Shown piece by piece: positions 3,837-63,044 of a DNA stretch of 64,000 nt (the first letter of the stretch is position 1; every line of letters begins with the position of its first letter). Source of the stretch: Minisyncoccota bacterium (GTDB lineage Bacteria > Patescibacteriota > Minisyncoccia > Phycocordibacterales > JABAAK01); NCBI GenBank assembly GCA_965204115.1, contig OZ241963.1, positions 233,293-297,292 of the forward strand, in the 5' to 3' direction. The position numbers and the translations under genes are program-made. Below the pieces are notes generated by a model. It was not told the DNA's origin. It did not search any database and was given only the letters and a program-made list of their open reading frames with translations.

Positions 3837-4928
3837 TTATTTTCCAGATTTTCTTCGATTACATTCTTTATATAACATCTGACAGTTTTCTGCGACTGTT
3901 TTACCGCCTTCATGCCAAGGGGTGATGTGGTCGGCTTCCATGTCTTCAATTTCAAAATGCTCTTCACACACCGGGCAGATACCTTTTTGTCTTTCGTATG
4001 CTTCACGCTTCATATTGGGAGTAAAGGCACGGATTGAAAGAGATTTCTCTTGGCGAGTTAAAACATATGGGTAGATGCCTGATTTATCCGTGACATCTTC
4101 ATCTTGCATGAGTCTGGTAATTTCGGTTTCCAATTTTTCGGCATTCAGTTTTTTATCTTTGAATTGGTTGTACAAATCGCCCCATTTTACACCTTTCATT
4201 TCATTACGATAGTTAGTGAAAACCTTGCGCACCCATGTAATGACACTTTGAAAATAATCCCAGAGTTCATTTGCATTATTATCATGCTGGTGTTTTGCCA
4301 TATAGTCTGCGACCTCCCCATCATTGATCCACAAAAGAGCGGTTTCCAAGTACTCTTGCCTGATGGGTGAACCTTTTATGAGTGACCCTCCATCATTTGC
4401 TAAAAGATACGCTGCACAACCTGTTTTACTGAATTTTAATTTTGCGTCAGAGAGCCATGGGCCGGTGTAGACCGCGTTTCTGATCTCTTGATCCGTTAAT
4501 TTTTCGCCTGCGATATTAATGGTAAAGAACCAATCCAAACGCTCTTTGTCTGTGCCTTCACAAAAGTAAATCATAAGTTCGTAGTCAAGAATCTGTTTCT
4601 GCTCTTCGGCAGTGAGATTGTGAAAAAAGCGGTCGTTGAGCAAGAAGTCACCATTTACATACTGTCCGATACTGATGGTACGCTGCTGTCCGTCCAACAT
4701 TTCATAGGTGCCATCTCCCTTAACCATCCAGTACATCACATTAAGGGGGAAATTTTGTTTGACGGTCTCAATAACCGCATTGCGCTGTTTGTCGTCATAG
4801 ACAAACTCTCTCTGGTATTTTGGACGAACATCCAATTTGCCATCATAGGCAACAACGCCTTCTTCTTTACTATCTTTATACCCTTTAACCACATCACGAA
4901 CTTTGATTTTCTCTAAGTCAATTTTCAT
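3837..4928 (-). CDS. DUF262 (GmrS/ParB-like NTPase) + C-terminal HNH nuclease fusion; GmrSD-like / type IV restriction-like protein
   Basis: DUF262 signatures KYQREFVY and DGQQRT. C-terminal HNH: CPVCEEHF...DHITPWHEGGKTVAENCQMLYKECNRRK. Confidence 0.7.
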   Translation of the reverse strand: MKIDLEKIKVRDVVKGYKDSKEEGVVAYDGKLDVRPKYQREFVYDDKQRNAVIETVKQNFPLNVMYWMVKGDGTYEMLDGQQRTISIGQYVNGDFLLNDRFFHNLTAEEQKQILDYELMIYFCEGTDKERLDWFFTINIAGEKLTDQEIRNAVYTGPWLSDAKLKFSKTGCAAYLLANDGGSLIKGSPIRQEYLETALLWINDGEVADYMAKHQHDNNANELWDYFQSVITWVRKVFTNYRNEMKGVKWGDLYNQFKDKKLNAEKLETEITRLMQDEDVTDKSGIYPYVLTRQEKSLSIRAFTPNMKREAYERQKGICPVCEEHFEIEDMEADHITPWHEGGKTVAENCQMLYKECNRRKSGK

Positions 4929-4929
4929 A

Positions 4930-5979
4930 CTATTTTTTGTTTTTGATTAAGATACGCTTAAACTTCTTTTTTCCACTGATGTAAATTGCATTTGCAAACG
5001 AATATACACCGTCCGCTCCAACCGATCCTACATGACCAATGATTTCAAATTGTTTGGGGTTGTATTTGTCCACAAAGGTTACAGGCACACCCATTACACC
5101 ACTATAATCCATCGGGATGTCAGTATATTTGTCTATATTGATTGCATCATAGTTATCATATTTTGGATATTCTTTTGGAGTGTATTTTTTATATAGAGTC
5201 AATTCCTCGTGACGCTTGGCGACATCTAAATTGGTAAACCATAAGATGCTGCCCATACTGAAGTACTTAATACCGTCCTCAACTTTGATTCTGGATTCGG
5301 TTTGAATGTCGTAATCCTCAGGCACTTGAAACCATTTGGTTCCGCCGTTATCGTACCCCAACCATAATCGGTTTTCCTTGATAAACTTAAAAATTTCTTT
5401 GTAAGTAATGGCGTTTTGATTCCCTAGGATCAAAAATTCCTTTTGGTGTTCCATTAGTTGTGCAACATAGTCTCGAAAAAGCGAAAACGGTGGATTGGTT
5501 ACCACTATATCTGCCTGTTTAAGCAGGCTGATACACTCATCGCTGCGAAAATCTCCATCACCTTTAAGCGGTGTGGCAACATTGGCGTCTTGTCTTAGTA
5601 ATTGCTTAACATCTCCTAAACTAACCGCTCCGTCATTATTGAGGTCTTTAACTTCGTTAATCTCAATTCTAAATGGCTCTTTTCCTTCTGGCTTCAATCC
5701 TTCTATCTCAACGAGTGGTAATTGCCCGCCAGCAATTGGTGATCTTATGTAGCTTGTGGCAATGAGTTTTTTAAGTCCTAAGGCATTAAAACTGGCAGCA
5801 AAATACTTGAAGAAATTACTTTCATAAGGGTCATCGCAGTTACAATATACAACCTTACCGCGGAACTGCTCTTTATAGTGTCTTAGTTCTTTTTCAATGT
5901 CAACAAGTTGAGTGTAAAACTCATCCTTTTTTGCCTTAGCTGCCTGGTGAAGACCTGTATTGTTCACTTTTGTATCCAT
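4930..5979 (-). CDS. N6-adenine DNA methyltransferase (NPPF catalytic motif IV)
   Basis: IVVTNPPFSLFRDY is motif IV ((D/N)PP(Y/F)) of amino-MTases. N-terminal DEFYTQ and CNCDDPYES resemble the EcoRI-methylase-like adenine MTase family. Stop lies 1 nt before the next gene. Confidence 0.65.
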   Translation of the reverse strand: MDTKVNNTGLHQAAKAKKDEFYTQLVDIEKELRHYKEQFRGKVVYCNCDDPYESNFFKYFAASFNALGLKKLIATSYIRSPIAGGQLPLVEIEGLKPEGKEPFRIEINEVKDLNNDGAVSLGDVKQLLRQDANVATPLKGDGDFRSDECISLLKQADIVVTNPPFSLFRDYVAQLMEHQKEFLILGNQNAITYKEIFKFIKENRLWLGYDNGGTKWFQVPEDYDIQTESRIKVEDGIKYFSMGSILWFTNLDVAKRHEELTLYKKYTPKEYPKYDNYDAINIDKYTDIPMDYSGVMGVPVTFVDKYNPKQFEIIGHVGSVGADGVYSFANAIYISGKKKFKRILIKNKK

Positions 5980-10645: not shown

Positions 10646-13600
10646 TTATACAATGTCCGCGACAATTTTTGCGGTCAGTTCGTCACTCTCTATGGTAAAT
10701 TCAGTGCCCTCCTCCGGACTTGTCGCAACATAGGCGACGCTGCGTACCCGCACCTCCTGTTTTATTTTCTCTTCGTGTGCCTGTATATGTTTTAACTGCT
10801 CGGTAGGTATGTGTACCGACAGTGTGTCTGCTGTTCGTGTCGGTGAAAACCCTTTTTCTTTTCGTATTTTTTGGATATTGCGAACATACTCGCGTACGAA
10901 TCCTTCGGCGCGCAGTTCGTCTGTCAGCGTGGTGCTGAGCTCAATTGGCTTGGCAGCGGCAGGGTCAACAACCACCTCTTTCACATTCACCTCATCCCGA
11001 ATCAGTGCCTGCTGCTCCTCGTCAACTTCCTGCTGCACGATGACTTTCTGCAATGGCTGCCGCACCTTGATTCCCGCTTCCGCCCGCTGTTCGTGTGCCA
11101 CCGATACAATATCCCGCACCACAGCTGTTTTTTCTATCGCGTCTCTTTGAAACCACATTTTTTGCGGCCACTTTGTGAGGTGGACACTGTCCGGCAAAAA
11201 CATTTTTTGCGGATGGTGCTTTCGCATCTCTGAGAATAGGTGCTCGGCGTAGAATGGCGCGACCGGCGCGAGGCATTTTGCAAACTCGGTCAGGATGAAC
11301 CGCAGGGTCTCCCGCGCTTCCGCACCGTCGTCCGTTCGGTTCTTTATCCTGTCTCGTGAGCGGCGGATGTACCAGGTTGATAAGTCCTCCACAAATGCGC
11401 CGATTGGCGCGACTGCTTCGTCGATGTGGTACGACTCAAGCCCTTTCGTCATTGCATCCCGCATTTCAGCAAATCGGGAGCAGATATACTCGTCCAATAA
11501 GCTTCTGCCGCCCCGCTTGTGTGGTAGGTGCGCGTATATTAAATAGAATTTGAGGCAGTTATGCAGCCGCGCGTACACTTTTTTGTATACCTCATCAACC
11601 TGCTCATCCCGAAAATCAAGATCTTCTCCGCGCACCACCGGCGAGCCGAGGAGGTAGTGTCGCAGTGAATCCGCACCGTATCGATTAATGATCTGCATTG
11701 GGTCGGTGTAGTTTTGCAAACTCTTGCTCATCTTTTTACCGTCCGCGGCGCGAATTAAGCCGGTTACCACCACCTGCCGGTACGGCGACCGATCAAACGC
11801 TCCGACCGCGATCGTCATCAAACTGTAAAACCATCCTCGTGTTTGATCCAGCCCCTCACAGATGAAATCTGCCGGAAATCCGCGGCGCAGCAGCGGGTTA
11901 AAGATTCGCTTGTTCTCAAACGGATAGTGGTGTGATCCGTACGGCATCGCCCCTGATTCAAACCAGCAGTCAAATACCTCTTTTGTGTGGTACGCCGGGT
12001 TGCCGTCTGCGTCATTGAGCACCACCTCATCAATGTACGGTCGGTGCAGGTCAACCTCGCCGTTTTCATCCCGCCTCACATGCACATAGCGAATGGGGCA
12101 CACGCTCGCGTTGGCAAGCGGTTTTAAGATGGTGGTTTTTCTGTAGTTTTTTTGAAACTGTGCTTTGGTCGGCGCGATGGAGCGTGCCGTGTTGACAACC
12201 GCCCGATGGGTAACCACCACGATGTTCGCATCCTGATACTCTCTGTCCACTTTTTCAAAAAATCGCAGGATTCGTCCGTAGATGTCTAAAAATGATTCAC
12301 CGCCATCAATGGACTTGCTCATATCACGAAATGCGCCGACTTCGCGGATTGCCCGCCATAGCTCCTGCACCGGTCGATTATGTAAATTCGGCACCTGTAG
12401 TTCGGTCAACAGCGGCTCTTCAATCATTCTCGCGTCGGTCTCTTTTGCAATGTACTCTGCTGTTTCTTTCGTGCGGGTGAGCGGTGAATGAAAAATGATG
12501 GTCGGTTTCATGGGCTTCAGTTTCTGCGCCGTCTTTGCTGCCTGCTCTCTTCCCTTTTCGGTTAAGCCATCCCCCGGTTCTTTTTGACAGTTCAAAACAT
12601 TTTTTTCATTACTCACCGACTGCCCGTGTCGCACAAAGAAATAGCGGTTTCTCGGACGCATTTTTGCGTACATCTCTTCCAGCGAGCCGACGATGATGTG
12701 CTCTCCTGTCTTCTCCACCTTCCACGCCGGTATCGGCGCGCCCCAGAAGCGGTTTCGCGATACCGCCCACTCCCGCGCTCCGGCAAGCCAATTGCCGAAC
12801 CGTCCGTCCCGAATATGCCCCGGTACCCACTTGACCTTTTTGTTCTCGGCAACCATGCGATCTTTGATTTGTTCCGAATGCACAAACCACGAATCGGTGG
12901 CATAGTTCAGCAGCGGTGTTGTGCATCGCCAGCACACCGGGTAGGCGTGCTCTATCGGCTCGCTGTGCAGTAGCAGACCTTTGTTCTGTAAATCTTGGAG
13001 TATTTTTTCGTCCACTGTTTTTGTGTTGCCCGCTTCTTTCGGACGCAAGCCGGCATACTCTTCCAGCTGCGGCACAAACACGCCGTCTTTCGTCACATGG
13101 TGTCGAATCGGCAGTCCCTCCTTCTCCGCGGTTTCCATGTCGTCGGCTCCGTATGCCGGTGCGAGGTGTACAATGCCGGTGCCGACCCCCTGCTCAATAT
13201 ATGGCACCCGCTGCACGCGCCATAGTTTCTTTTTTACCTGCGCATCGTCTTTGGCGTAGAGGTGGTCGAAGGGTGGTGTGTACTCTTTTCCGACCAGTTC
13301 GGAACCCTTTTTTGTCCCTGTGGCTGTGCCGCCGTCCACGATGTGTGCTGCGTCCTGATGCAGGATATATTTCTTTCCTTCCCGCTCGACGACCGCATAC
13401 TCCATACTCTCGTCCACACCGAGTGCGACATTGCCGAACAGTGTCCATGGCGTTGTTGTCCACGCAACGAGACAGGTGTTCGGATCATCTTTCAGCGGAA
13501 ATAGCACATACACTGCCGTGTCGGTCAGCGGCTCATAGCTATCCGCGACCTCTGCGTTGGAGATGACCGTCGAGCAGCGCGGACACAGGTGTAGTGACTT

Positions 13601-14167
13601 GAAGCCATTGCTCACCAAGCCCCGCCGGTGCAGCCGATGAAAGACTGACCACACCGATTCCATATATGGTGTGTTGAGCGTGCGATAGTCGTTCTCCATG
13701 TCCACCCACCGACCGATCCGCGGAATAATCTGTTTCCACTCGTCCACATAGGTAAAGATGGTGTCGCGAATACCGCGGTTAAATTTTTCTATGCCGTATT
13801 CTTCAATGTCCCGCTTTGTCTTTGTCCCGATTTTTTTCTCCATTTCCACCTCAGGCGGCAGTCCGTGGCAATCCCATCCCCACCGACGCAGCACCTGATA
13901 CCCCCGCATCGTCTTATACCGCGGCACCACATCTTTCACGATGCTCGCCAAAATGTTGCCGAAATGCGGCAGTCCCGTCGCGAATGGCGGGCCGTCGTAC
14001 ATAATAAATTGTCTTTTCGGGATGAGTTTTTGTGTTATTCGCTGCAAAAAGCTTTTTTTCTCCCGCCCCTCACTCTTTTCAAAAATGCTGTTTTCCCGCC
14101 AAAACCGTAGCACCCGTTCCTCCCGACCGGCAACCGTTTCCCGTTTTTCGCCTCCCTTTTCAGCCAT
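10646..14167 (-). CDS. ileS: isoleucyl-tRNA synthetase, type 2, carrying an inserted histidine-phosphatase-like domain
   Basis: PPFATGLPHFGNIL (HIGH region), WAVSRNRFWGAPIP, DLHRPYIDE and KMSKS are present. 1173 aa is ~130-150 aa longer than typical type-2 IleRS, due to the RHGQ...VVVTHRAVV block between the PIPAW and DLHRPYID segments. Confidence 0.9.
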   Translation of the reverse strand: MAEKGGEKRETVAGREERVLRFWRENSIFEKSEGREKKSFLQRITQKLIPKRQFIMYDGPPFATGLPHFGNILASIVKDVVPRYKTMRGYQVLRRWGWDCHGLPPEVEMEKKIGTKTKRDIEEYGIEKFNRGIRDTIFTYVDEWKQIIPRIGRWVDMENDYRTLNTPYMESVWSVFHRLHRRGLVSNGFKSLHLCPRCSTVISNAEVADSYEPLTDTAVYVLFPLKDDPNTCLVAWTTTPWTLFGNVALGVDESMEYAVVEREGKKYILHQDAAHIVDGGTATGTKKGSELVGKEYTPPFDHLYAKDDAQVKKKLWRVQRVPYIEQGVGTGIVHLAPAYGADDMETAEKEGLPIRHHVTKDGVFVPQLEEYAGLRPKEAGNTKTVDEKILQDLQNKGLLLHSEPIEHAYPVCWRCTTPLLNYATDSWFVHSEQIKDRMVAENKKVKWVPGHIRDGRFGNWLAGAREWAVSRNRFWGAPIPAWKVEKTGEHIIVGSLEEMYAKMRPRNRYFFVRHGQSVSNEKNVLNCQKEPGDGLTEKGREQAAKTAQKLKPMKPTIIFHSPLTRTKETAEYIAKETDARMIEEPLLTELQVPNLHNRPVQELWRAIREVGAFRDMSKSIDGGESFLDIYGRILRFFEKVDREYQDANIVVVTHRAVVNTARSIAPTKAQFQKNYRKTTILKPLANASVCPIRYVHVRRDENGEVDLHRPYIDEVVLNDADGNPAYHTKEVFDCWFESGAMPYGSHHYPFENKRIFNPLLRRGFPADFICEGLDQTRGWFYSLMTIAVGAFDRSPYRQVVVTGLIRAADGKKMSKSLQNYTDPMQIINRYGADSLRHYLLGSPVVRGEDLDFRDEQVDEVYKKVYARLHNCLKFYLIYAHLPHKRGGRSLLDEYICSRFAEMRDAMTKGLESYHIDEAVAPIGAFVEDLSTWYIRRSRDRIKNRTDDGAEARETLRFILTEFAKCLAPVAPFYAEHLFSEMRKHHPQKMFLPDSVHLTKWPQKMWFQRDAIEKTAVVRDIVSVAHEQRAEAGIKVRQPLQKVIVQQEVDEEQQALIRDEVNVKEVVVDPAAAKPIELSTTLTDELRAEGFVREYVRNIQKIRKEKGFSPTRTADTLSVHIPTEQLKHIQAHEEKIKQEVRVRSVAYVATSPEEGTEFTIESDELTAKIVADIV

Positions 14168-14240: not shown

Positions 14241-16808
14241 TTATTGAGAGGTTTTACTGAGGTCTCCGATGGCGACCCAGCCCTCTTCGTAGCTTACGGG
14301 TGGTGCCTGTTTTTCTCTCTTTGGTGCGACTTTGAGATCTTTTTGTAGGCCGGTTGATTTTGTTGATTTTACTAAATCACCCAATCCGCCGCTGATGTTT
14401 GGGCGTGGTTGCGGTTGCTGTTTTTTTGGTGCTTCCTGCTGTTTGTTTTCTGTATCCGGCTTTGTGACCGACTGCTCGGTCGGTGGTGGCGCTGCCATAC
14501 TGCGTGCAATGGTTCCGGTGATCACGCCGTTTGGTCGGCGGACGGTGTCGGGTTCCTGCTGCTGCCTTTCCTGCCTTCTTCGCTGAGTCAATCTTTCATT
14601 TTTTGCTAATCTGTTTCTCTCTTGCTTTGTTTGTGCGATTGGCTTGTGCGAAGGTGTCTGCCTTTGTGTGTTCTGCCGGGGGTGTTGTGGCCTTTCCGAC
14701 TGCTGGCGCCTGTCCAGTGCAGGAGTTCTACCTCTCTGCCTTTCAGTGTTTCTGTGCTGCTGCGGTTTGCGTTGCTCGGGTCGCTCAGGTCGCTGTCTAC
14801 TGTTGTTGTGGCGTGTGTCATTTCTTTCTCTTTGGGAGGGGCGCTTGTTTCTTAGTTCGCGCGGCCTTTCAGGAGCGGCATCTCGTGTGCGCTGTGGCGC
14901 AGTGTTTCTTGGTTCACGCTCCTGCCGTCTTTCGTTTCTTTTGCGGTCGGTGCGCTGTGGTTTCTGTATGTCCGCTTTGCGAGTATCTCTTTGTATATTC
15001 ATACCATCGTCTTTCTTTTCGGACACAGCAGGCGTGATGGGGTACTCTTTTTTCTCTTTTGGTTCGTGTGCTGTCTTCTGTGCCGGTGTTGGGGTTGGCG
15101 CTGCTTCAGTACTTTCTGTATCTGACACCGGCTCCGGCTCCGGTTGATTTCGTTTGAAAATTCCTTTGAGTAGCGGCGCGCGCTTTTTTTCAGTGCTTGC
15201 TGCATCTGCTCTCTCATCTCTGCTGTCTGCTTTGCTGTCTGTCTTAACGATAGGGACCGACTTGGCATCTTGTTTTTCTGCCTTGGCTTTGCTGTCGTCT
15301 TGTGCGGTTTGTTTTTTCGGCTTTTCTGTTTTTTGTTTTTCGGTATTCGTCTGTCCGCTGCCGTGTTGCTGTATCTGTTGCACTAATCCTTTCAGCGGGG
15401 TGTGCGTCTCGTTTCCTTTTTGGCCGCCCTGTTTCTTTCTATCAGAGCCCTGCTGTTTGCCGCCTTTCCCTGTTTTTTCTTTTGCCTTTTCATCCTCCGC
15501 CAAGTTATCCGCGACTATTTTTTCTATCACATCCCGGTCAACGCCGTAGGTGTCCATTGTCCGCTGCACCACCTCTTCTTCCATTGAATCTTCAGTCGGC
15601 GGCGGCTCAAAGAAAGTTCGCGCAGAAAACGGCACAGACCCCGCGCCGTCAATGTTCAAGGTGAGGTAGATGTGGTATCGTGGCAGCGCGACTAAGTCCT
15701 CCTCCGCGATGTCCGGCGCGAATTGCTTTGAGATAATTTCCGCGTCAACCGGACCAACCCGAAACGATACAAAGGTGCCGACATTGCCGAACACTGCATC
15801 CCGAATCGCGTCTCCTCCGCCGGTGTCATCGGTATACAGCTGCCCTAAATACTGGTGCGCCATCACCAAATTCAGCTTGTACTTCCGCGCCTCGGATAGG
15901 ATGTCGGAAAAAGAGGAGTTTGCGAATGATTGGAACTCGTCAACGAAAAAGTTGCACGGGTTTGCTGCTTCCAGATGGGCGCGATCCAGATCGCTCCGTG
16001 ATAGTGCGGCGAGGTAGATTTTGGTCGTGAACAACACGCCGAGCATGCGCGCGTTGTTCTCGCCGACCTGCCCTTTTGAAAGGTTTACCAGCAGTATCTT
16101 CCCTTCATCCATAATCTCCCGAAAATTAAACGCTGACTTTTCCTGCCCGATGATGTTTCGCATCAGCGGGTTGGAGGTGAACTGTCCGAGCTTGTTTTGG
16201 ATGGATGGTGTCGCCTCCTGTGCGTACCGCTCGGTATAGTTTGCGTATTCCTCAACCCAGTATTTCCGCACCTGCGGGTCTTTCAGGTTGGCAACCACCT
16301 TTTCACGAAAATCTTTGCTGGAATACATCCGCCCCACATCAAGCAGCGTTGTTCCCGGATACTCAATCAACGCCAACAGTGTGTTCTGTAAAATGTACGC
16401 CATTCGATCCGACCAAGTTCCCGCTCCCCAAATCTTTTCAAATGAGGCCATTAAGCTGCTTACCACCAAATGCCGTTTATCGTATCCGATGTCCTCCATA
16501 ATGTTCAGCCCAATCGGTTTTTCCTGGTAGTGCGGTGCGAAGTAGATGATCTTGTCCAGATGCTCCGGTGTCACATACTTCAGCAGTGCCTCAACGGATT
16601 GACCGTGCGGATCCATAAATATCAGCCCGGTGCCGTTGCGAATGTCCTGCATCGCCAGCATTTCTAACAGCGTTGACTTTCCGGTTCCTGTCTGCCCGAT
16701 GACATAGATATGCCGTGACCGATCCTTTTCCTTAATGCCGAAGCGCACGGTATTCCCCCGCTTTTCTAATTCTCCCACTTGTACTATTCTTTCAGGATCG
16801 TATGCCAT
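14241..16808 (-). CDS. TraD/TraG/VirD4-family type IV coupling-protein-like ATPase (cytoplasmic, no N-terminal TM) with a long charged low-complexity C-terminal tail
   Basis: Walker A YVIGQTGTGKST and Walker B NFFVDEFQSF. The AAA-like fold resembles T4SS DNA-transfer ATPases. Residues ~438-830 are K/E/R/Q/P-rich and disordered. Confidence 0.5.
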   Translation of the reverse strand: MAYDPERIVQVGELEKRGNTVRFGIKEKDRSRHIYVIGQTGTGKSTLLEMLAMQDIRNGTGLIFMDPHGQSVEALLKYVTPEHLDKIIYFAPHYQEKPIGLNIMEDIGYDKRHLVVSSLMASFEKIWGAGTWSDRMAYILQNTLLALIEYPGTTLLDVGRMYSSKDFREKVVANLKDPQVRKYWVEEYANYTERYAQEATPSIQNKLGQFTSNPLMRNIIGQEKSAFNFREIMDEGKILLVNLSKGQVGENNARMLGVLFTTKIYLAALSRSDLDRAHLEAANPCNFFVDEFQSFANSSFSDILSEARKYKLNLVMAHQYLGQLYTDDTGGGDAIRDAVFGNVGTFVSFRVGPVDAEIISKQFAPDIAEEDLVALPRYHIYLTLNIDGAGSVPFSARTFFEPPPTEDSMEEEVVQRTMDTYGVDRDVIEKIVADNLAEDEKAKEKTGKGGKQQGSDRKKQGGQKGNETHTPLKGLVQQIQQHGSGQTNTEKQKTEKPKKQTAQDDSKAKAEKQDAKSVPIVKTDSKADSRDERADAASTEKKRAPLLKGIFKRNQPEPEPVSDTESTEAAPTPTPAQKTAHEPKEKKEYPITPAVSEKKDDGMNIQRDTRKADIQKPQRTDRKRNERRQEREPRNTAPQRTRDAAPERPRELRNKRPSQRERNDTRHNNSRQRPERPEQRKPQQHRNTERQRGRTPALDRRQQSERPQHPRQNTQRQTPSHKPIAQTKQERNRLAKNERLTQRRRQERQQQEPDTVRRPNGVITGTIARSMAAPPPTEQSVTKPDTENKQQEAPKKQQPQPRPNISGGLGDLVKSTKSTGLQKDLKVAPKREKQAPPVSYEEGWVAIGDLSKTSQ

Positions 16809-59313: not shown

Positions 59314-61095
59314 ATGGCAATACAAAAAAGAAACTATAAACGATCACAGCAAACACGATCAAGAGGCAAAACAGCTTCTGTAAAAAAACCAAAAAAAGTA
59401 TTTATTCCGAAACCGAGCAGAGGTGAGATTCGCACGCTTATATTCGGCGGCATATCAGAAATCGGTAAAAATATGTACGCTATTGAGTACAACAACAATA
59501 TCATTATATTGGAGTGCGGCACCATGTTCGGCGAGCGCAGTACCCCGGGTATTAGTGCGATTATGCCGAATATCCAATACCTCAAAAACAGAAAGCAGGA
59601 TGTTAAGGCGCTCATTGTCACCGACGCTTCAATGAAGCACATCGGTGCTATTCCTTATGCTATTCAGGATGTGGGCAGTCCGACTATATATACCAGAAAG
59701 CTCACTAAGGCGATTATAGAGAACCACCAAAAAACTCTCCGCAAAAAGCCGACTACAACATTCCATGAAGTTGAGGAAGCGGAGTCAGTTACTATCAACG
59801 ATGAAATCACGCTTCACTTCTTTGGTGTCACCAATGATGCGCCGAGTACTCTCGGTGTTCTTATAGAGACCCCTGTTGGCTGCATCGCCTACACCGGCAA
59901 CCTGAAGGTGAGCCACAATAAAGAGGTCATTCGCGCTGAAGAGGAGAAAGTGTTCAAAGCGGCGAAAGAGAAGGAGGTTGTTCTCTCTCTTGCTGACTCC
60001 GTCGGCTCAGAGCGCCCCGGCTTTGCTATCACTGACCAGGAGATCGCTGAAGAAATTGAACAGATGATACAAGAGGCGCCGTACCGCGTTATGACCTCTC
60101 TCTTCCCTTCCCAGATAAAAAGGAACGCGATGATACTGGAAAAAGCTCTCAAAGCCGGCAAGAAGACCTATATAGAAGGCGCACTTCTGTTGGAAAACCT
60201 CCAGACCGCCTGTGACCTCGGGATCGTGCAAGTGCCGAGAGAAGTGCTCATTCCCATACAGGAGATGAAAAAGGAGGAGGATGACGCTGAAAAAGTATTC
60301 ATCGCTTTTACCGCTGAAGAGAATGAAATCTGTGAAGCATTAGAGAGCATCTCTCGGGAAAGTTATCGATATACCTCCGTCATCACGAAAGATACTGTCA
60401 TATTTCCCTCACCGATGATTCCCGCGAATGCGCAGGCAATACAAAATCTCAAAGACCGTCTCTCTCGCCTCGGTGCGATAACCCGCTCGTATGACACAAG
60501 CGATGTCAGGGGCAGCGGACATGCTAACAAGAGCGAGCTCCGCTGGATGCACCAGCTCCTTGACGCGACATTCTTCATTCCTTTGCAGGGCTATCACTAT
60601 ATGCTTAATGCGCACACGCACATCCTTCGTGAACTTGGTATGGCACAGGACTCATTCGTTATACCTGAAAATGGTGTCATAATAGATATTAGCCCTGACG
60701 GTAAGGTCATCAAAAAACAAAAACAGCGGATGGAGACAACTGCAGTATCTGTTGACGGGCACACCCTCGCCCCGATACAGGAGGTTGTGGTGCAGGATCG
60801 TAATACACTTTCACAGGAAGGTATATTTATCATCATTGTCTTTGTTGACCGTAAAACACTTGAAGTTAAAAAATCCCCTGATATTATCTCTCGCGGTTTT
60901 ATATACTTGCGGGAATCACAGGACCTCATCGCGCGTGTCCGCATTGTCATTAAAAAAGCCGCTGAAAAAGAAATGAAAGAGACCGGTAAAATAGAAATTG
61001 ATAAAATGAAGAAAGCAATACAGAAAGAAGTGCAGACCTTTTTGGTGAATGAGACCAACAAACGACCGATTATTGTTCCGGTTATATTCACCTAA
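59314..61095 (+). CDS. RNase J paralog with a degenerate metallo-beta-lactamase active site (HxHxDH replaced by TDASMKH)
   Basis: Full RNase J architecture (MBL, beta-CASP with SGHAN, C-terminal domain). Aligned against the downstream copy, SHAHLDHIGG becomes TDASMKHIGA. Confidence 0.7.
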   Translation: MAIQKRNYKRSQQTRSRGKTASVKKPKKVFIPKPSRGEIRTLIFGGISEIGKNMYAIEYNNNIIILECGTMFGERSTPGISAIMPNIQYLKNRKQDVKALIVTDASMKHIGAIPYAIQDVGSPTIYTRKLTKAIIENHQKTLRKKPTTTFHEVEEAESVTINDEITLHFFGVTNDAPSTLGVLIETPVGCIAYTGNLKVSHNKEVIRAEEEKVFKAAKEKEVVLSLADSVGSERPGFAITDQEIAEEIEQMIQEAPYRVMTSLFPSQIKRNAMILEKALKAGKKTYIEGALLLENLQTACDLGIVQVPREVLIPIQEMKKEEDDAEKVFIAFTAEENEICEALESISRESYRYTSVITKDTVIFPSPMIPANAQAIQNLKDRLSRLGAITRSYDTSDVRGSGHANKSELRWMHQLLDATFFIPLQGYHYMLNAHTHILRELGMAQDSFVIPENGVIIDISPDGKVIKKQKQRMETTAVSVDGHTLAPIQEVVVQDRNTLSQEGIFIIIVFVDRKTLEVKKSPDIISRGFIYLRESQDLIARVRIVIKKAAEKEMKETGKIEIDKMKKAIQKEVQTFLVNETNKRPIIVPVIFT

Positions 61096-61112: not shown

Positions 61113-63044
61113 ATGCCAGAAAAAAGAAAAGTTACAACAAAAAAAACAATAGAGCGTACCGATAAGGATGCGGTCAATAAGAGTAAAAGTGCTCCTGCAA
61201 AAAAGAGTGCGTCAAAAAAAGCGACGAAGAAGCGACCGGATGCGCCGAAGAAAAAGGTGCCGTCAGGGCTCTATCAAAAACCCCTTCGCCGTCAGGGCGG
61301 ACTCATCGGCTCTCGAGAACTCACCGGCGGATTTGATGCTGAATCAACCTTGAATATACCACGACAAGAAAAAGGAGCCATCCGTGTTCTCTTCTTTGGC
61401 GGTGTCGGAGAAATCGGTAAAAATATGTACGGGATTGAGTATGAGGATGAGATCGTGCTCCTGGACTGTGGCATGAAATTTGCCCAGAACGACACTCCCG
61501 GCATTGACTTTATTGTTCCGAATATTCAATACCTTGAAGAACGGAAAGAGAAAATAAAAGGGCTTGTTATCTCTCACGCCCACCTTGATCACATCGGCGG
61601 TATTTCAGTTGTTATGAACAGGATCGGCAACCCGCCGATTTTCTCCCGCAAACTCAGCATAGAACTTATCAGGAATAGGCAGGGCGAATTTGAAAACAAA
61701 GAGGCGATTAAGTACCATGAGGTGGAGAAGAGTACTGTACTGAAGCTTAGCGATAATCTCACCCTCACCTTTTTCTCTGTTACGCACACCATCCCCGACT
61801 CAATGGGTATTGTTATAGACACCCCTGTCGGCGCGATTATCTTTACCGGTGATCTCAAGCTTACTCACGAAGATGGTGTTGTCGGCCCTGAAGAGGTTAA
61901 AGAATTTGCCGCGATTAAAAAGAAAAATGTTCTCTTAACGATGGCAGATTCAACCAATGCGGAACGCCCCGGCTTTTCCCTTCCGGAAAAGCGTGTGGTG
62001 GAAACCATCGGTAAAATAATTAAAGAAACCAAAGGCAGGGTTATCCTTTCCGCGTTTTCAACGCAGATAGAGCGCACCATCAGAGTTATTGAGCATGCCA
62101 TTGAAAATGGCAGAAAGGTAATTGTGCAGGGCAGGTCAATGATTACTAATCTTACCATCGCCTCGGAGTTGGGGCTTCTTAAAATACCACTCACTGCGAT
62201 TATCCCGGCTGAAAAAATGGGAGATTACCCGAAGGAGAAACTTCTCGTCCTTGCAACCGGCGCTCAGGGAGATAATTTTACCGCGATGGACAGGATGTCT
62301 CGCGGCACCCACCGGCATATTAAACTGGACAGTAAAGATACCGTTGTCTTTTCCTCCTCGATTATTCCCGGCAATGAAGAGCCCGTACAAAACCTCAAAG
62401 ACCGCCTTTCCAAACTCGGCGTGGATCTTATCACCTACCAAACAAGTGATGTCCATTCCAGCGGACATGCTAACCGTGATGAGCTTAAATGGATTCACGA
62501 AAACATCGGCGCAAAATTTTTCACCCCTATCCATGGTTACCACTTTATGCTCTCTGCGCATGCCCAAATTCTTCGCGATATCGGTATGCCTGAAGAAAAT
62601 ATCATTATTCCCAACAATGGCTCCATTGTGGATATTAATCCTGATGGGTCAGCAATTACTATGCAGGAGTACACCATGCCCACAGAGGTTATTGTTGTGG
62701 ATGGTAACGCCGTCGGAACTGCGCAAGCCGTTGTTCTTAACGATCGCATAACCCTTAAAGAAGAAGGTATTTTCGTTGTTATTGTTCTTATCAACAAGCG
62801 GCTTAAAAAAGTTAAAAAATCTCCCGATATTATATCCCGTGGCTTTGTCTATCTTAAAGAATCTCAACAGCTTATTAATCGTTCCCGTATGATTGCTCGT
62901 CGCTCTGTAGATCAATCTCTTCGTCGTGGCAGAATGATAAACCTTGACGCAATAAAACGAAACCTCATTCGCGAAACCCAAAATTATCTCTATAACGAAA
63001 CGAAAAAACGCCCGATCATCGTCCCTGTCCTCTTTGTTTCTTAG
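61113..63044 (+). CDS. rnj: ribonuclease J with a Lys-rich N-terminal extension
   Basis: VLFFGGVGEIGKNMY, intact ISHAHLDHIGG motif II, SGHAN beta-CASP motif. The first ~70 residues are K/A-rich. Confidence 0.8.
   Translation: MPEKRKVTTKKTIERTDKDAVNKSKSAPAKKSASKKATKKRPDAPKKKVPSGLYQKPLRRQGGLIGSRELTGGFDAESTLNIPRQEKGAIRVLFFGGVGEIGKNMYGIEYEDEIVLLDCGMKFAQNDTPGIDFIVPNIQYLEERKEKIKGLVISHAHLDHIGGISVVMNRIGNPPIFSRKLSIELIRNRQGEFENKEAIKYHEVEKSTVLKLSDNLTLTFFSVTHTIPDSMGIVIDTPVGAIIFTGDLKLTHEDGVVGPEEVKEFAAIKKKNVLLTMADSTNAERPGFSLPEKRVVETIGKIIKETKGRVILSAFSTQIERTIRVIEHAIENGRKVIVQGRSMITNLTIASELGLLKIPLTAIIPAEKMGDYPKEKLLVLATGAQGDNFTAMDRMSRGTHRHIKLDSKDTVVFSSSIIPGNEEPVQNLKDRLSKLGVDLITYQTSDVHSSGHANRDELKWIHENIGAKFFTPIHGYHFMLSAHAQILRDIGMPEENIIIPNNGSIVDINPDGSAITMQEYTMPTEVIVVDGNAVGTAQAVVLNDRITLKEEGIFVVIVLINKRLKKVKKSPDIISRGFVYLKESQQLINRSRMIARRSVDQSLRRGRMINLDAIKRNLIRETQNYLYNETKKRPIIVPVLFVS

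Follow-up and report, generated by a model that had tools for sequence, protein, structure and literature searches.

Aminoacyl-tRNA synthetases are among the best-studied enzymes, and their accessory domains (editing, WHEP, GST-like and EMAPII) have repeatedly revealed new biology. Isoleucyl-tRNA synthetases (IleRS) of type 2 share a domain order that runs through the Rossmann fold, the connective peptide (CP) core, the CP1 editing domain, CP2, CP3, the anticodon-binding domain and the C-terminal domains. CP3 is a peripheral subdomain whose topology varies among the solved IleRS. Its published boundaries are residues 473 to 534 in the Candida albicans enzyme and residues 459 to 526 in the yeast enzyme, and, in published IleRS structures, the pocket that receives the CCA end of the tRNA is lined by the linker between CP2 and CP3 (...SRNRYWG). 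Here we analyzed a stretch of 64,000 nucleotides (the window) from contig OZ241963.1 of the Minisyncoccota bacterium assembly GCA_965204115.1 (positions 233,293 to 297,292, forward strand). The window contains an ileS gene whose product is, almost certainly, a type-2 IleRS with a histidine phosphatase of approximately 200 residues, resembling PhoE, PspA and GpgP, nested at the distal tip of CP3. The architecture places a metabolic-type enzyme inside the catalytic domain of an apparently housekeeping IleRS across a large part of the Candidate Phyla Radiation (CPR). Full-text searches of approximately 8 million papers and preprints, with subscription-only literature outside their coverage, returned no description of a phosphatase nested in an aminoacyl-tRNA synthetase, in agreement with a preliminary description of this locus, made from the sequence alone, which knew of no such fusion. 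The proteins themselves are public under generic names, each of their two parts comes from a known family and domain nesting is itself a recognized phenomenon; here the nesting is unusually widespread and recurrent.

Position and boundaries of the inserted domain

The ileS gene occupies positions 10646..14167 on the (-) strand, as do all of its features given below, and forms a single, uninterrupted reading frame of 1173 aa plus a stop codon, without internal stop or frameshift. Alignment of its product with Priestia megaterium IleRS2 (PDB 8c8u) matched residues 9 to 499 with residues 7 to 474 of the solved chain and residues 702 to 1073 with residues 483 to 855, so that approximately 202 residues stand where the solved enzyme has approximately 8. 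The inserted block (aa 500-701; 12065..12670) comprises the phosphatase with short linkers and replaces the CP3 tip. Taken together, the published CP3 boundaries and this alignment locate the insertion point at the distal tip of CP3, and no extra domain at CP3 was found in any solved IleRS that we compared. Positions 12053-12661 correspond to aa 503-705 and translate as MRPRNRYFFVRHGQSVSNEK...IVVVTHRAVV...RRDENGEV; all feature coordinates were verified by translation. The preliminary description had reported a continuous frame of 1173 aa with a block of about 200 residues between WGAPIPAW and DLHRPYID, where homologues have only about 20 to 30, and each of these observations was borne out.

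We surveyed the spacing of conserved motifs at 80 loci from GTDB species representatives; the scan was seeded with a full-length alignment, the insert alone being too poorly conserved. Among type-2 IleRS, the motifs WGxPxPxW and xHRPxxD were separated by 22 to 26 aa in enzymes without the insert and by 218 to 228 aa in enzymes with it. The corresponding distances from WGxPxPxW to DxWFxSG were 50 to 54 aa and 245 to 254 aa. At the insertion point, the insert-free enzymes show the sequence GSxxELExLSG(Q/K)K(V/I)xDLHK.

The insert is a branch-1 histidine phosphatase

The insert was matched at aa 510-691 (12095..12640) by the Pfam model His_Phos_1 (PF00300) with an E value of 5.3e-31. The full protein scored 108.2 bits and the insert alone 113 bits (E=2e-32), against a gathering cutoff of 21.7. 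When the isolated insert was modeled with AlphaFold2 (AF2), a check that had been proposed at the outset, it adopted a histidine-phosphatase fold with a predicted local distance difference test score (pLDDT) of 95.9. Its fold neighbors in Foldseek (TM 0.73-0.76, probability 1.00) were GpgP/Rv2419c, PspA, mycobacterial hydrolase 1, PhoE, TIGAR, riboflavin-pathway HFP and CobC, and mutase structures fitted less well (TM-score normalized to target of approximately 0.5-0.6). By sequence, the nearest solved relatives were PspA (3e-10), PhoE and CobC. Judged by its sequence and its predicted structure, the insert is a true branch-1 domain of the histidine-phosphatase superfamily.

The residues expected of such an enzyme are all present. 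The RHG motif (12623..12631) consists of R513, the predicted nucleophile H514 and G515; R565 (12473..12475) is the second phosphate-binding arginine, E589 (12401..12403) the predicted proton donor and H654 (12206..12208), within IVVVTH, the second catalytic histidine. Across 108 to 114 homologues, R513, H514, S561, R565, R632 and H654 were invariant, N520, E589 and E624 were conserved at 98% or above (E589 at 98%) and G515 was conserved at 92%, against a mean identity to the query of 35% in the insert and 57% in the IleRS core. The length of the insert was also constrained, to 197 to 216 aa. In each additional copy of the domain that we examined, the catalytic residues were likewise intact, the equivalent of E589 being an aspartate in a single locus (L027). 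The retention of catalytic residues against a background identity of approximately 35% argues for retained catalysis, and we infer from this conservation that the nested phosphatase is very probably active. The RHG motif and the second catalytic histidine had been recognized in the preliminary description and are supported by the PF00300 match, to which the second arginine and the glutamate donor can now be added. Its wording of a PGAM-like domain inside the catalytic core stands as to a histidine-phosphatase domain; the location is refined to the CP3 subdomain and the type to that of PhoE, PspA, GpgP and CobC, and the domain is not a cofactor-dependent mutase.

Assignment of the insert to individual members of the superfamily was rejected in every case tried with NCBIfam models. 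Scores lay below the cutoffs for cofactor-dependent phosphoglycerate mutase (dPGM; TIGR01258, 29.6 versus 81.7; NF038349, 68.6-73.1 versus 225), for the CobC alpha-ribazole phosphatase (TIGR03162, 80.6-84.7 versus 162.9), for the PspA phosphoserine phosphatase (NF045917, 64-68.8 versus 350) and for SixA (TIGR00249, 27.8 versus 74.5). Since all equivalog models remained below cutoff, the insert belongs to the superfamily and lies outside any characterized orthologous group. It also matched PHROG 12933, a family with no assigned function. The net charge of the insert ranged from -17 to +14 across the family, with a median of -2 and a value of +10 in the query, and the segment between E589 and E624 (aa 590-623), which we take to be the substrate-specificity region in related phosphatases, was variable among homologues. 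The spread of charge and the variability of this segment imply that no surface for docking or for tRNA binding is conserved in the family.

The host is a type-2 IleRS with conserved KMSKS and editing motifs

Despite the interruption, the window protein scored 762.8 bits with the NCBIfam ileS equivalog TIGR00392 (cutoff, 621.4). The Pfam match to tRNA-synt_1 (E=2.5e-121) breaks off at aa 503, at profile position 267 of 414; Anticodon_1 and DUF5915 follow at aa 892-1043 and aa 1075-1168. The closest PDB entries were all of type 2 (8c8u, 1ile, 6ldk and 7d5c, with E values of approximately 1e-179), and the type-1 IleRS of Staphylococcus aureus (1ffy) was a far weaker match (7e-77). A full-length AF2 model, built from a 108-sequence alignment, had a pLDDT of 92.3 and a predicted TM-score (pTM) of 0.86, with values of 89 to 97 for blocks of the insert. 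The IleRS body of this model superposed on solved type-2 enzymes with TM-scores, normalized to target, of 0.84 to 0.91, versus 0.66 to 0.75 for type 1. The profile scores, the PDB matches and the model agree that the host is a type-2 (eukaryote-like) IleRS, as had been proposed.

The first part of the host (aa 1-499; 12671..14167) covers the first Rossmann half, the CP core, CP1 editing, CP2, the CP2-CP3 linker and the first half of CP3, which includes WGAPIPAW (12722-12745). The second part (aa 702-1173; 10649..12064) covers the second half of CP3 with DLHRPYID (aa 706-713; 12029-12052), the second Rossmann half with DCWFESG (11951-11971), the anticodon-binding domain and the C-terminal DUF5915. 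KMSKS is canonical in the window protein (11720-11734); among the 114 family members, K812 and K815 were invariant, M813 and S814 were found in 106 and 110 sequences, respectively, and position 816 was S in 45, R in 43 and K in 24. In the editing motif WTTTPWT (aa 236-242; 13442..13462), W and T were invariant and P240 was present in 110 of 114 sequences, and in the second editing motif, H-x-A-P-x-[YF]-G-x-x-D, residues H334, P337, G340 and D343 were invariant. With the invariant residues of HIGH, KMSKS and the two editing motifs retained family-wide, the host is very probably active, as far as sequence can tell, and no second ileS was found within the 64-kb window.

The HIGH signature of the window protein reads H-F-G-N (aa 68-71; 13955..13966). 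At its fourth position, 91 of the 114 family members have H, 19 have N and 4 have S; HYGH is the form of most, HFGN is shared by the window protein and 18 relatives, and loss of the second histidine is unusual. Changes to the HIGH motif of IleRS2 have reportedly been tied to mupirocin hyper-resistance (PMC10485003). The exception models for the mupirocin-resistance enzymes MupA and MupB gave 588 and 586 bits with the window protein, against a cutoff of 1900, so that it is not assigned to them.

We also noted that the window protein lacks the CP3 zinc-knuckle cysteines of the Thermus thermophilus type (CxxC...CxC), which would fall at aa 484, 487, 719 and 721 (approximately 12700-12720 and 12005-12015). 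Among Paceibacteria-type enzymes with the insert, 15 of 44 keep the knuckle, as do 17 of 22 CPR enzymes that lack the insert; its retention in the former indicates that knuckle and insert are able to coexist. In the motif DLH-R-P-Y-ID, Pro710 was present in all 44 Paceibacteria-type insert-bearers, whereas insert-free and Peregrinibacteria enzymes have DLH-K-H/E-x-V-D. This pattern either marks the clade or reflects an adaptation in the strand next to the end of the insert.

Distribution and assembly support

The identical protein is recorded from a contig of 661,662 bp, and its 90% identity cluster holds two further full-length members from other assemblies, on contigs of 451 kb and 32 kb. 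The architecture with PF00300 inside IleRS was found in 120 of the 120 best homologues (42-97% identity, approximately 1140 to 1220 aa), whose source names are Candidatus Kaiserbacteria, Pacebacteria, Taylorbacteria, Parcubacteria and Patescibacteria. In an exhaustive HMMER search over 1.84 billion cluster representatives, the junction-spanning region aa 470-745 was matched by 477 clusters (50% identity) at E<=1e-10, and in nearly all of the top 150 clusters flank, insert and flank were matched contiguously. The survey of related genomes that the preliminary description had recommended therefore finds the same insertion widespread. An assembly error joining two genes, which it had named as a possible refutation, is ruled out, together with a frameshift, by the continuous reading frame, the independent assemblies and the hundreds of homologues.

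Two apparent exceptions did not withstand inspection. A 201-aa protein (P0243) that appeared to be a free-standing close relative proved to be a contig-end fragment with adaptor-derived junk, and an apparent relic of the insert at locus L075 was masked sequence.

Many homologues (e.g., P0002, P0023, P0049, P0055 and P0072) are named by NCBI only as "class I tRNA ligase family protein" or "hypothetical protein"; the insertion presumably interferes with the scoring of the models. Automated metabolic reconstructions may accordingly under-call IleRS and overlook the phosphatase in such genomes.

Further insertion sites and other nested enzymes

The CP3-tip site of the window protein, which we call site A, is occupied likewise in IleRS of Peregrinibacteria and Peribacteria. 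Most of these enzymes carry a second intact phosphatase later in CP3, between DLHKxxVD and DCWFESG (site B). Two-domain enzymes were found at loci L031, L032, L034, L036, L038, L048 and L050, the domains in the L031 reading frame lying at aa ~548-724 and ~767-928. The site-B domain scored 108 bits (38% identity) against free-standing PhoE-like proteins and 57 to 73 bits against the site-A domain of its own protein. Its closer relationship to free-standing phosphatases points to independent capture rather than internal duplication. At a third position, site C, a copy directly precedes the anticodon-binding domain; it occurs together with site A in L045 (DAOMYL010000005.1, ORF [open reading frame] aa ~470-651) and in P0277 (aa 871-1061). 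In P0356 the site-C copy (aa 733-899) is the sole one, without site A, and has RHT in place of RHG; the HIGH motif of this protein is the variant GVHH.

The same domain was found in valyl-tRNA synthetases (ValRS) of Gracilibacteria and Peregrinibacteria (P0244 and P0390-P0507), where 1 to 4 His_Phos copies were present in 71 of the 120 proteins listed (approximately 60%, the query P0244 included). The domain was counted 88 times in these proteins; 75 of the copies are in CP3, between WWGHRIP and DTWFSS, and another 9 precede WWGH.

Unrelated enzymes are nested in some phosphatase-bearing IleRS. GNAT acetyltransferase domains were found in P0319 (aa ~270-420 and ~960-1060) and P0247 (aa 340-461 and 935-1063); Pfam detected no GNAT domain in the window protein. 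P0261 has, beside the phosphatase, a P-loop kinase-like domain (aa ~740-870) with the Walker A motif GACGAGKTT and weak matches to APS, shikimate and guanylate kinases and to PezT. In P0261 and P0319 the extra domains occupy another loop, flanked by WFESGSMPYA and FPADFIAEG. The editing region of P0247 additionally contains an IS200-like Y1 transposase domain, which may reflect either real nesting or an assembly problem.

Evolutionary history of the insertion

We built a neighbor-joining bootstrap tree of the IleRS core from which all phosphatase domains had been excised. A clade with 100% support united the insert-free CPR enzymes (labeled Falkowbacteria, Uhrbacteria, Nealsonbacteria and others) with the Paceibacteria-type insert-bearers, and the Peregrinibacteria enzymes and L027 fell outside it. 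The Paceibacteria-type insert-bearers were monophyletic in 56 of 100 replicates, and all insert-bearing IleRS together in 0 of 100. These data are compatible with a single ancient gain followed by one or more losses or with at least two gains at the identical site, between which the tree cannot decide. The insertions at sites B and C and those in ValRS are additional, independent events.

The GC content of the insert is 0.495 versus 0.538 for the rest of the gene, and the GC content at third codon positions is 0.554 versus 0.625. A recent horizontal insertion or a mobile element was rejected, since the GC content of the insert is only slightly below that of the gene and the junctions are conserved across classes. 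The conservation of the junctions indicates that the insertion is ancient.

Genes around ileS

The neighbors of ileS in the window are unrelated housekeeping genes. As a clue to function, conserved neighbors were sought among the flanking reading frames of the 80 GTDB loci, which yielded only RecO-like proteins, arginyl-tRNA synthetase (ArgRS), glycyl-tRNA synthetase (GlyRS) and a membrane protein, and these adjoin IleRS genes with and without the insert alike. A PADLOC scan for a link to defense gave one marginal hit only (E=0.004). Neither the neighboring genes nor the matches to defense and phage families offered a lead to the function, which argues against tight integration with aminoacylation.

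Several other features of the window were recorded. Directly upstream of ileS (14241-16808, (-) strand) lies a gene for an 855-aa protein whose N-terminal half resembles VirD4/TraG/HerA-like coupling ATPases (DUF87, TrwB_AAD_bind and TraG-D_C) and is followed by approximately 450 aa of low-complexity sequence extremely rich in K, R, Q, E and P, which results in a strong AT skew at ~14300-15500. Two RNase J paralogues are adjacent at 59314-61095 (+) and 61113-63044 (+); the first has no significant metallo-beta-lactamase match in Pfam and may be a degenerate or regulatory partner. At 3837-5979 (-), an EcoRI-like adenine methyltransferase (E=3e-141) adjoins a GmrSD_N plus HNH nuclease, in what looks like a restriction-modification or modification-dependent restriction pair.

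Possible roles of the nested phosphatase

We tentatively favor a reading in which the insert, as a tethered phosphomonoesterase, is active on small molecules and takes no part in aminoacylation. The polypeptide almost certainly holds two independently folded catalytic units. R513, R565 and H654 would bind a terminal phosphomonoester for attack by H514, and the leaving group would receive a proton from E589. The likeliest substrate would be a small phospho-compound, with the module tethered to and coexpressed with the synthetase and acting outside aminoacylation and editing. Under this hypothesis, the surface loops of class Ia synthetases, CP3 above all, would be tolerant of insertions, and the tiny, regulation-poor genomes of Patescibacteria would have used them repeatedly for accessory small-molecule enzymes (the phosphatase, GNAT and P-loop kinase-like domains). 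Tethering would ensure constitutive expression at a constant ratio to the translation apparatus, and it might let the domain act locally on nucleotides that the synthetase releases as products or by-products. The small-molecule substrate class is a guess, made because the nearest neighbors in sequence and structure are PspA, PhoE, GpgP, TIGAR, the riboflavin-pathway HFP and CobC. Independence from aminoacylation is likewise our guess. It is suggested by the lack of insert-specific core residues (at thresholds of 85%/20%, no position of the IleRS core was conserved specifically in all insert-bearers relative to insert-free enzymes), by the absence of a conserved surface, by the varying sites and copy number (1 to 4) and by the unrelated enzymes in similar loops.

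Several observations weigh against this preference. That two paralogous synthetases captured the domain recurrently and independently, and for the most part in one subdomain, appears to exceed what neutral piggy-backing would produce and suggests a functional link to IleRS and ValRS; the 75 of 88 ValRS instances in CP3 and the independently captured site-B domain both belong here. CP3 begins right after the CCA-pocket linker, and closeness to the active-site cleft could be relevant. The pTM of the full-length model suggests, as far as a prediction allows, that the domain has a defined rather than a floppy placement. Together, the recurrent capture in one subdomain and the high pTM suggest that association with IleRS and ValRS was itself selected. 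It is possible, if doubtful, that the IleRS and ValRS of Patescibacteria are platforms for synthetase-coupled chemistry, on which the nested phosphatase, GNAT and kinase-like domains act on substrates delivered by the synthetase. Candidate substrates would be damaged or toxin-modified tRNA acceptor ends, aminoacyl-tRNA, the adenylate and nucleotide by-products, and the enzymes would be combined "charge-and-repair" or "charge-and-regulate" machines. On this view, selection for a location near the active-site cleft would account for the repeated, independent capture in the same subdomain of two paralogues.

More specific proposals differ in the substrate that they assign to the domain. It might hydrolyze pyrophosphate (PPi), AMP or ADP, Ap4A-type by-products or an alarmone near the active site, relieving product inhibition or tying charging to nucleotide signaling. 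Among synthetases, the editing cycles that consume most ATP are those of IleRS and ValRS, and the favored site in both is CP3, anchored by the linker of the CCA pocket on one side and the core strand with DxWFxSG on the other. The P-loop nucleotide-kinase-like domain beside the phosphatase in one IleRS fits this theme, as do curated His_Phos fusions to nucleotide or nucleic-acid enzymes (NF052459 and NF005567, both weakly matched). However, PPi and AMP are made by all twenty synthetases, yet the domain was found only in IleRS and ValRS, the only two that were searched; site C and the upstream site in ValRS are found elsewhere in the sequence, the nearest relatives are sugar-phosphate, phosphoserine and ribazole phosphatases rather than nucleotidases, and the GNAT insertions do not fit, so that we regard nucleotide processing as unlikely. 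Healing of tRNA ends, by removal of a 3'-terminal or 2'-phosphate or of a toxin-placed CCA pyrophosphate from tRNA(Ile) or tRNA(Val) before charging, with the GNAT and kinase-like domains as analogous modifiers, would suit hosts that bind tRNA and a subdomain that comes after the CCA-pocket linker. The kinase-like and phosphatase pair of P0261 recalls polynucleotide kinase-phosphatase end-healing enzymes, and the query insert is basic (+10); the family median of -2, however, is that of a family without a general basic surface. To our knowledge, the histidine-phosphatase superfamily includes no RNA-end phosphatase. Up to four tandem copies are hard to explain for one tRNA end, PADLOC gave no defense hit beyond the marginal one, and in the IleRS structure papers that we consulted CP3 is not credited with any contact to tRNA. 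GNAT toxins with Ile-tRNA(Ile) as their target, such as ItaT, have been reported (PMC7367177) and count in favor of a role at the tRNA end, which on balance appears distinctly unlikely.

A protein substrate is very unlikely in our judgment. The phosphatase could dephosphorylate IleRS itself or its partners, for example after the action of HipA-like toxin kinases, in self-regulation or protection; synthetases are known targets of toxin kinases, tethering to its own substrate protein would make sense, and the superfamily includes protein phosphatases such as PGAM5, Sts and SixA, the last weakly matched here (27.8 bits). But the best matches in sequence and fold are small-molecule phosphatases, the SixA score is well below its cutoff of 74.5 and no kinase is conserved nearby across the 80 loci. 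Phosphatase, GNAT and kinase-like domains are also classic classes of small-molecule resistance enzymes, and nested enzymes could inactivate aminoacyl-adenylate-mimic inhibitors at their target, as MccE and RimL acetylate processed microcin C. IleRS is reported to be a frequent natural-product target (PMC10485003 and PMC12945691), and a curated NCBI family, ileS_w_GNAT, exists. Against such a target-embedded antibiotic defense, which we hold to be highly improbable, the feature is fixed over whole classes of Patescibacteria in an apparently housekeeping enzyme and is not patchy or accessory. We know of no IleRS inhibitor with a phosphomonoester, and the adenylate mimics, being diesters, phosphoramidates or sulfamates, would be poor substrates. 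Finally, the domain might be a noncatalytic structural or dimerization module, a pseudo-enzyme, given that many histidine phosphatases are dimeric, that tandem copies could pair mutually and that the insert might substitute for the zinc knuckle lost in many hosts, the window protein included. It is exactly the catalytic residues, however, that are invariant against approximately 35% identity, and the knuckle occurs alongside the insert in the 15 of 44 Paceibacteria-type enzymes noted above; this explanation, or an assembly or annotation artefact, to which the independent assemblies and hundreds of homologues are opposed, is extremely improbable.

If the phosphatase is coupled to the synthetase, it would represent a novel type of activity linked to synthetases, in organisms with a largely obscure physiology. 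If it is an independent passenger, as in the reading that we prefer, it would be a striking case of ultra-small genomes packing enzymes into permissive loops of essential proteins. CP3 would then naturally tolerate insertions of 200 to 800 residues, which would be useful for synthetase engineering, and similar domains would be predicted in other large proteins of Patescibacteria.

Comparison with known systems

The window protein shares its family, its domain order and its KMSKS and editing motifs with the solved type-2 IleRS (P. megaterium IleRS2, 8c8u/8c8v/8c9d; T. thermophilus, 1ile; yeast/Candida, 8wnd, 7d5c and 6ldk). It differs from them in having a 202-aa enzyme domain in place of about 8 residues at the CP3 tip, the HFGN form of the HIGH motif and no zinc-knuckle cysteines. 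The insert, in turn, shares its fold, its length of approximately 200 aa and the catalytic R-H-G, N, R, E and H with the small branch-1 phosphatases PhoE (1h2e/1ebb), PspA (4ij5), GpgP Rv2419c (4qih/4pz9), hydrolase 1 (6s2q), CobC (6e4b/6nru) and TIGAR. These enzymes are free-standing, often dimeric and have defined substrates, whereas the window domain is nested and only 19 to 25% identical to them.

Covalent joining of a His_Phos domain to an enzyme of nucleotides or nucleic acids has precedents in the RNase H/acid phosphatase of the Rv2228c type (NF005567), the MutT1 Nudix-His_Phos protein (NF052459) and 6-phosphofructo-2-kinase/fructose-2,6-bisphosphatase; the insert gave weak partial matches to the first two models. 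All three are end-to-end fusions, in contrast to the insertion described here, which lies inside a subdomain of the partner's catalytic domain, the partner being a synthetase. The family NF040702 (ileS_w_GNAT, [quoted passage not shown]) is a curated precedent for an extra enzymatic domain on IleRS, and P0319 and P0247 combine GNAT with His_Phos. The window protein, which has no GNAT domain, scored 285 bits with this model (cutoff, 1999) and falls outside the family. The nested editing domains of synthetases (CP1 of IleRS, ValRS and leucyl-tRNA synthetase and INS of prolyl-tRNA synthetase) resemble the insert in being separately folded hydrolases inserted into the synthetase catalytic fold. 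Editing domains hydrolyze aminoacyl esters and are integral to fidelity, whereas the insert has another fold, a predicted phosphomonoesterase chemistry and no evident link to fidelity.

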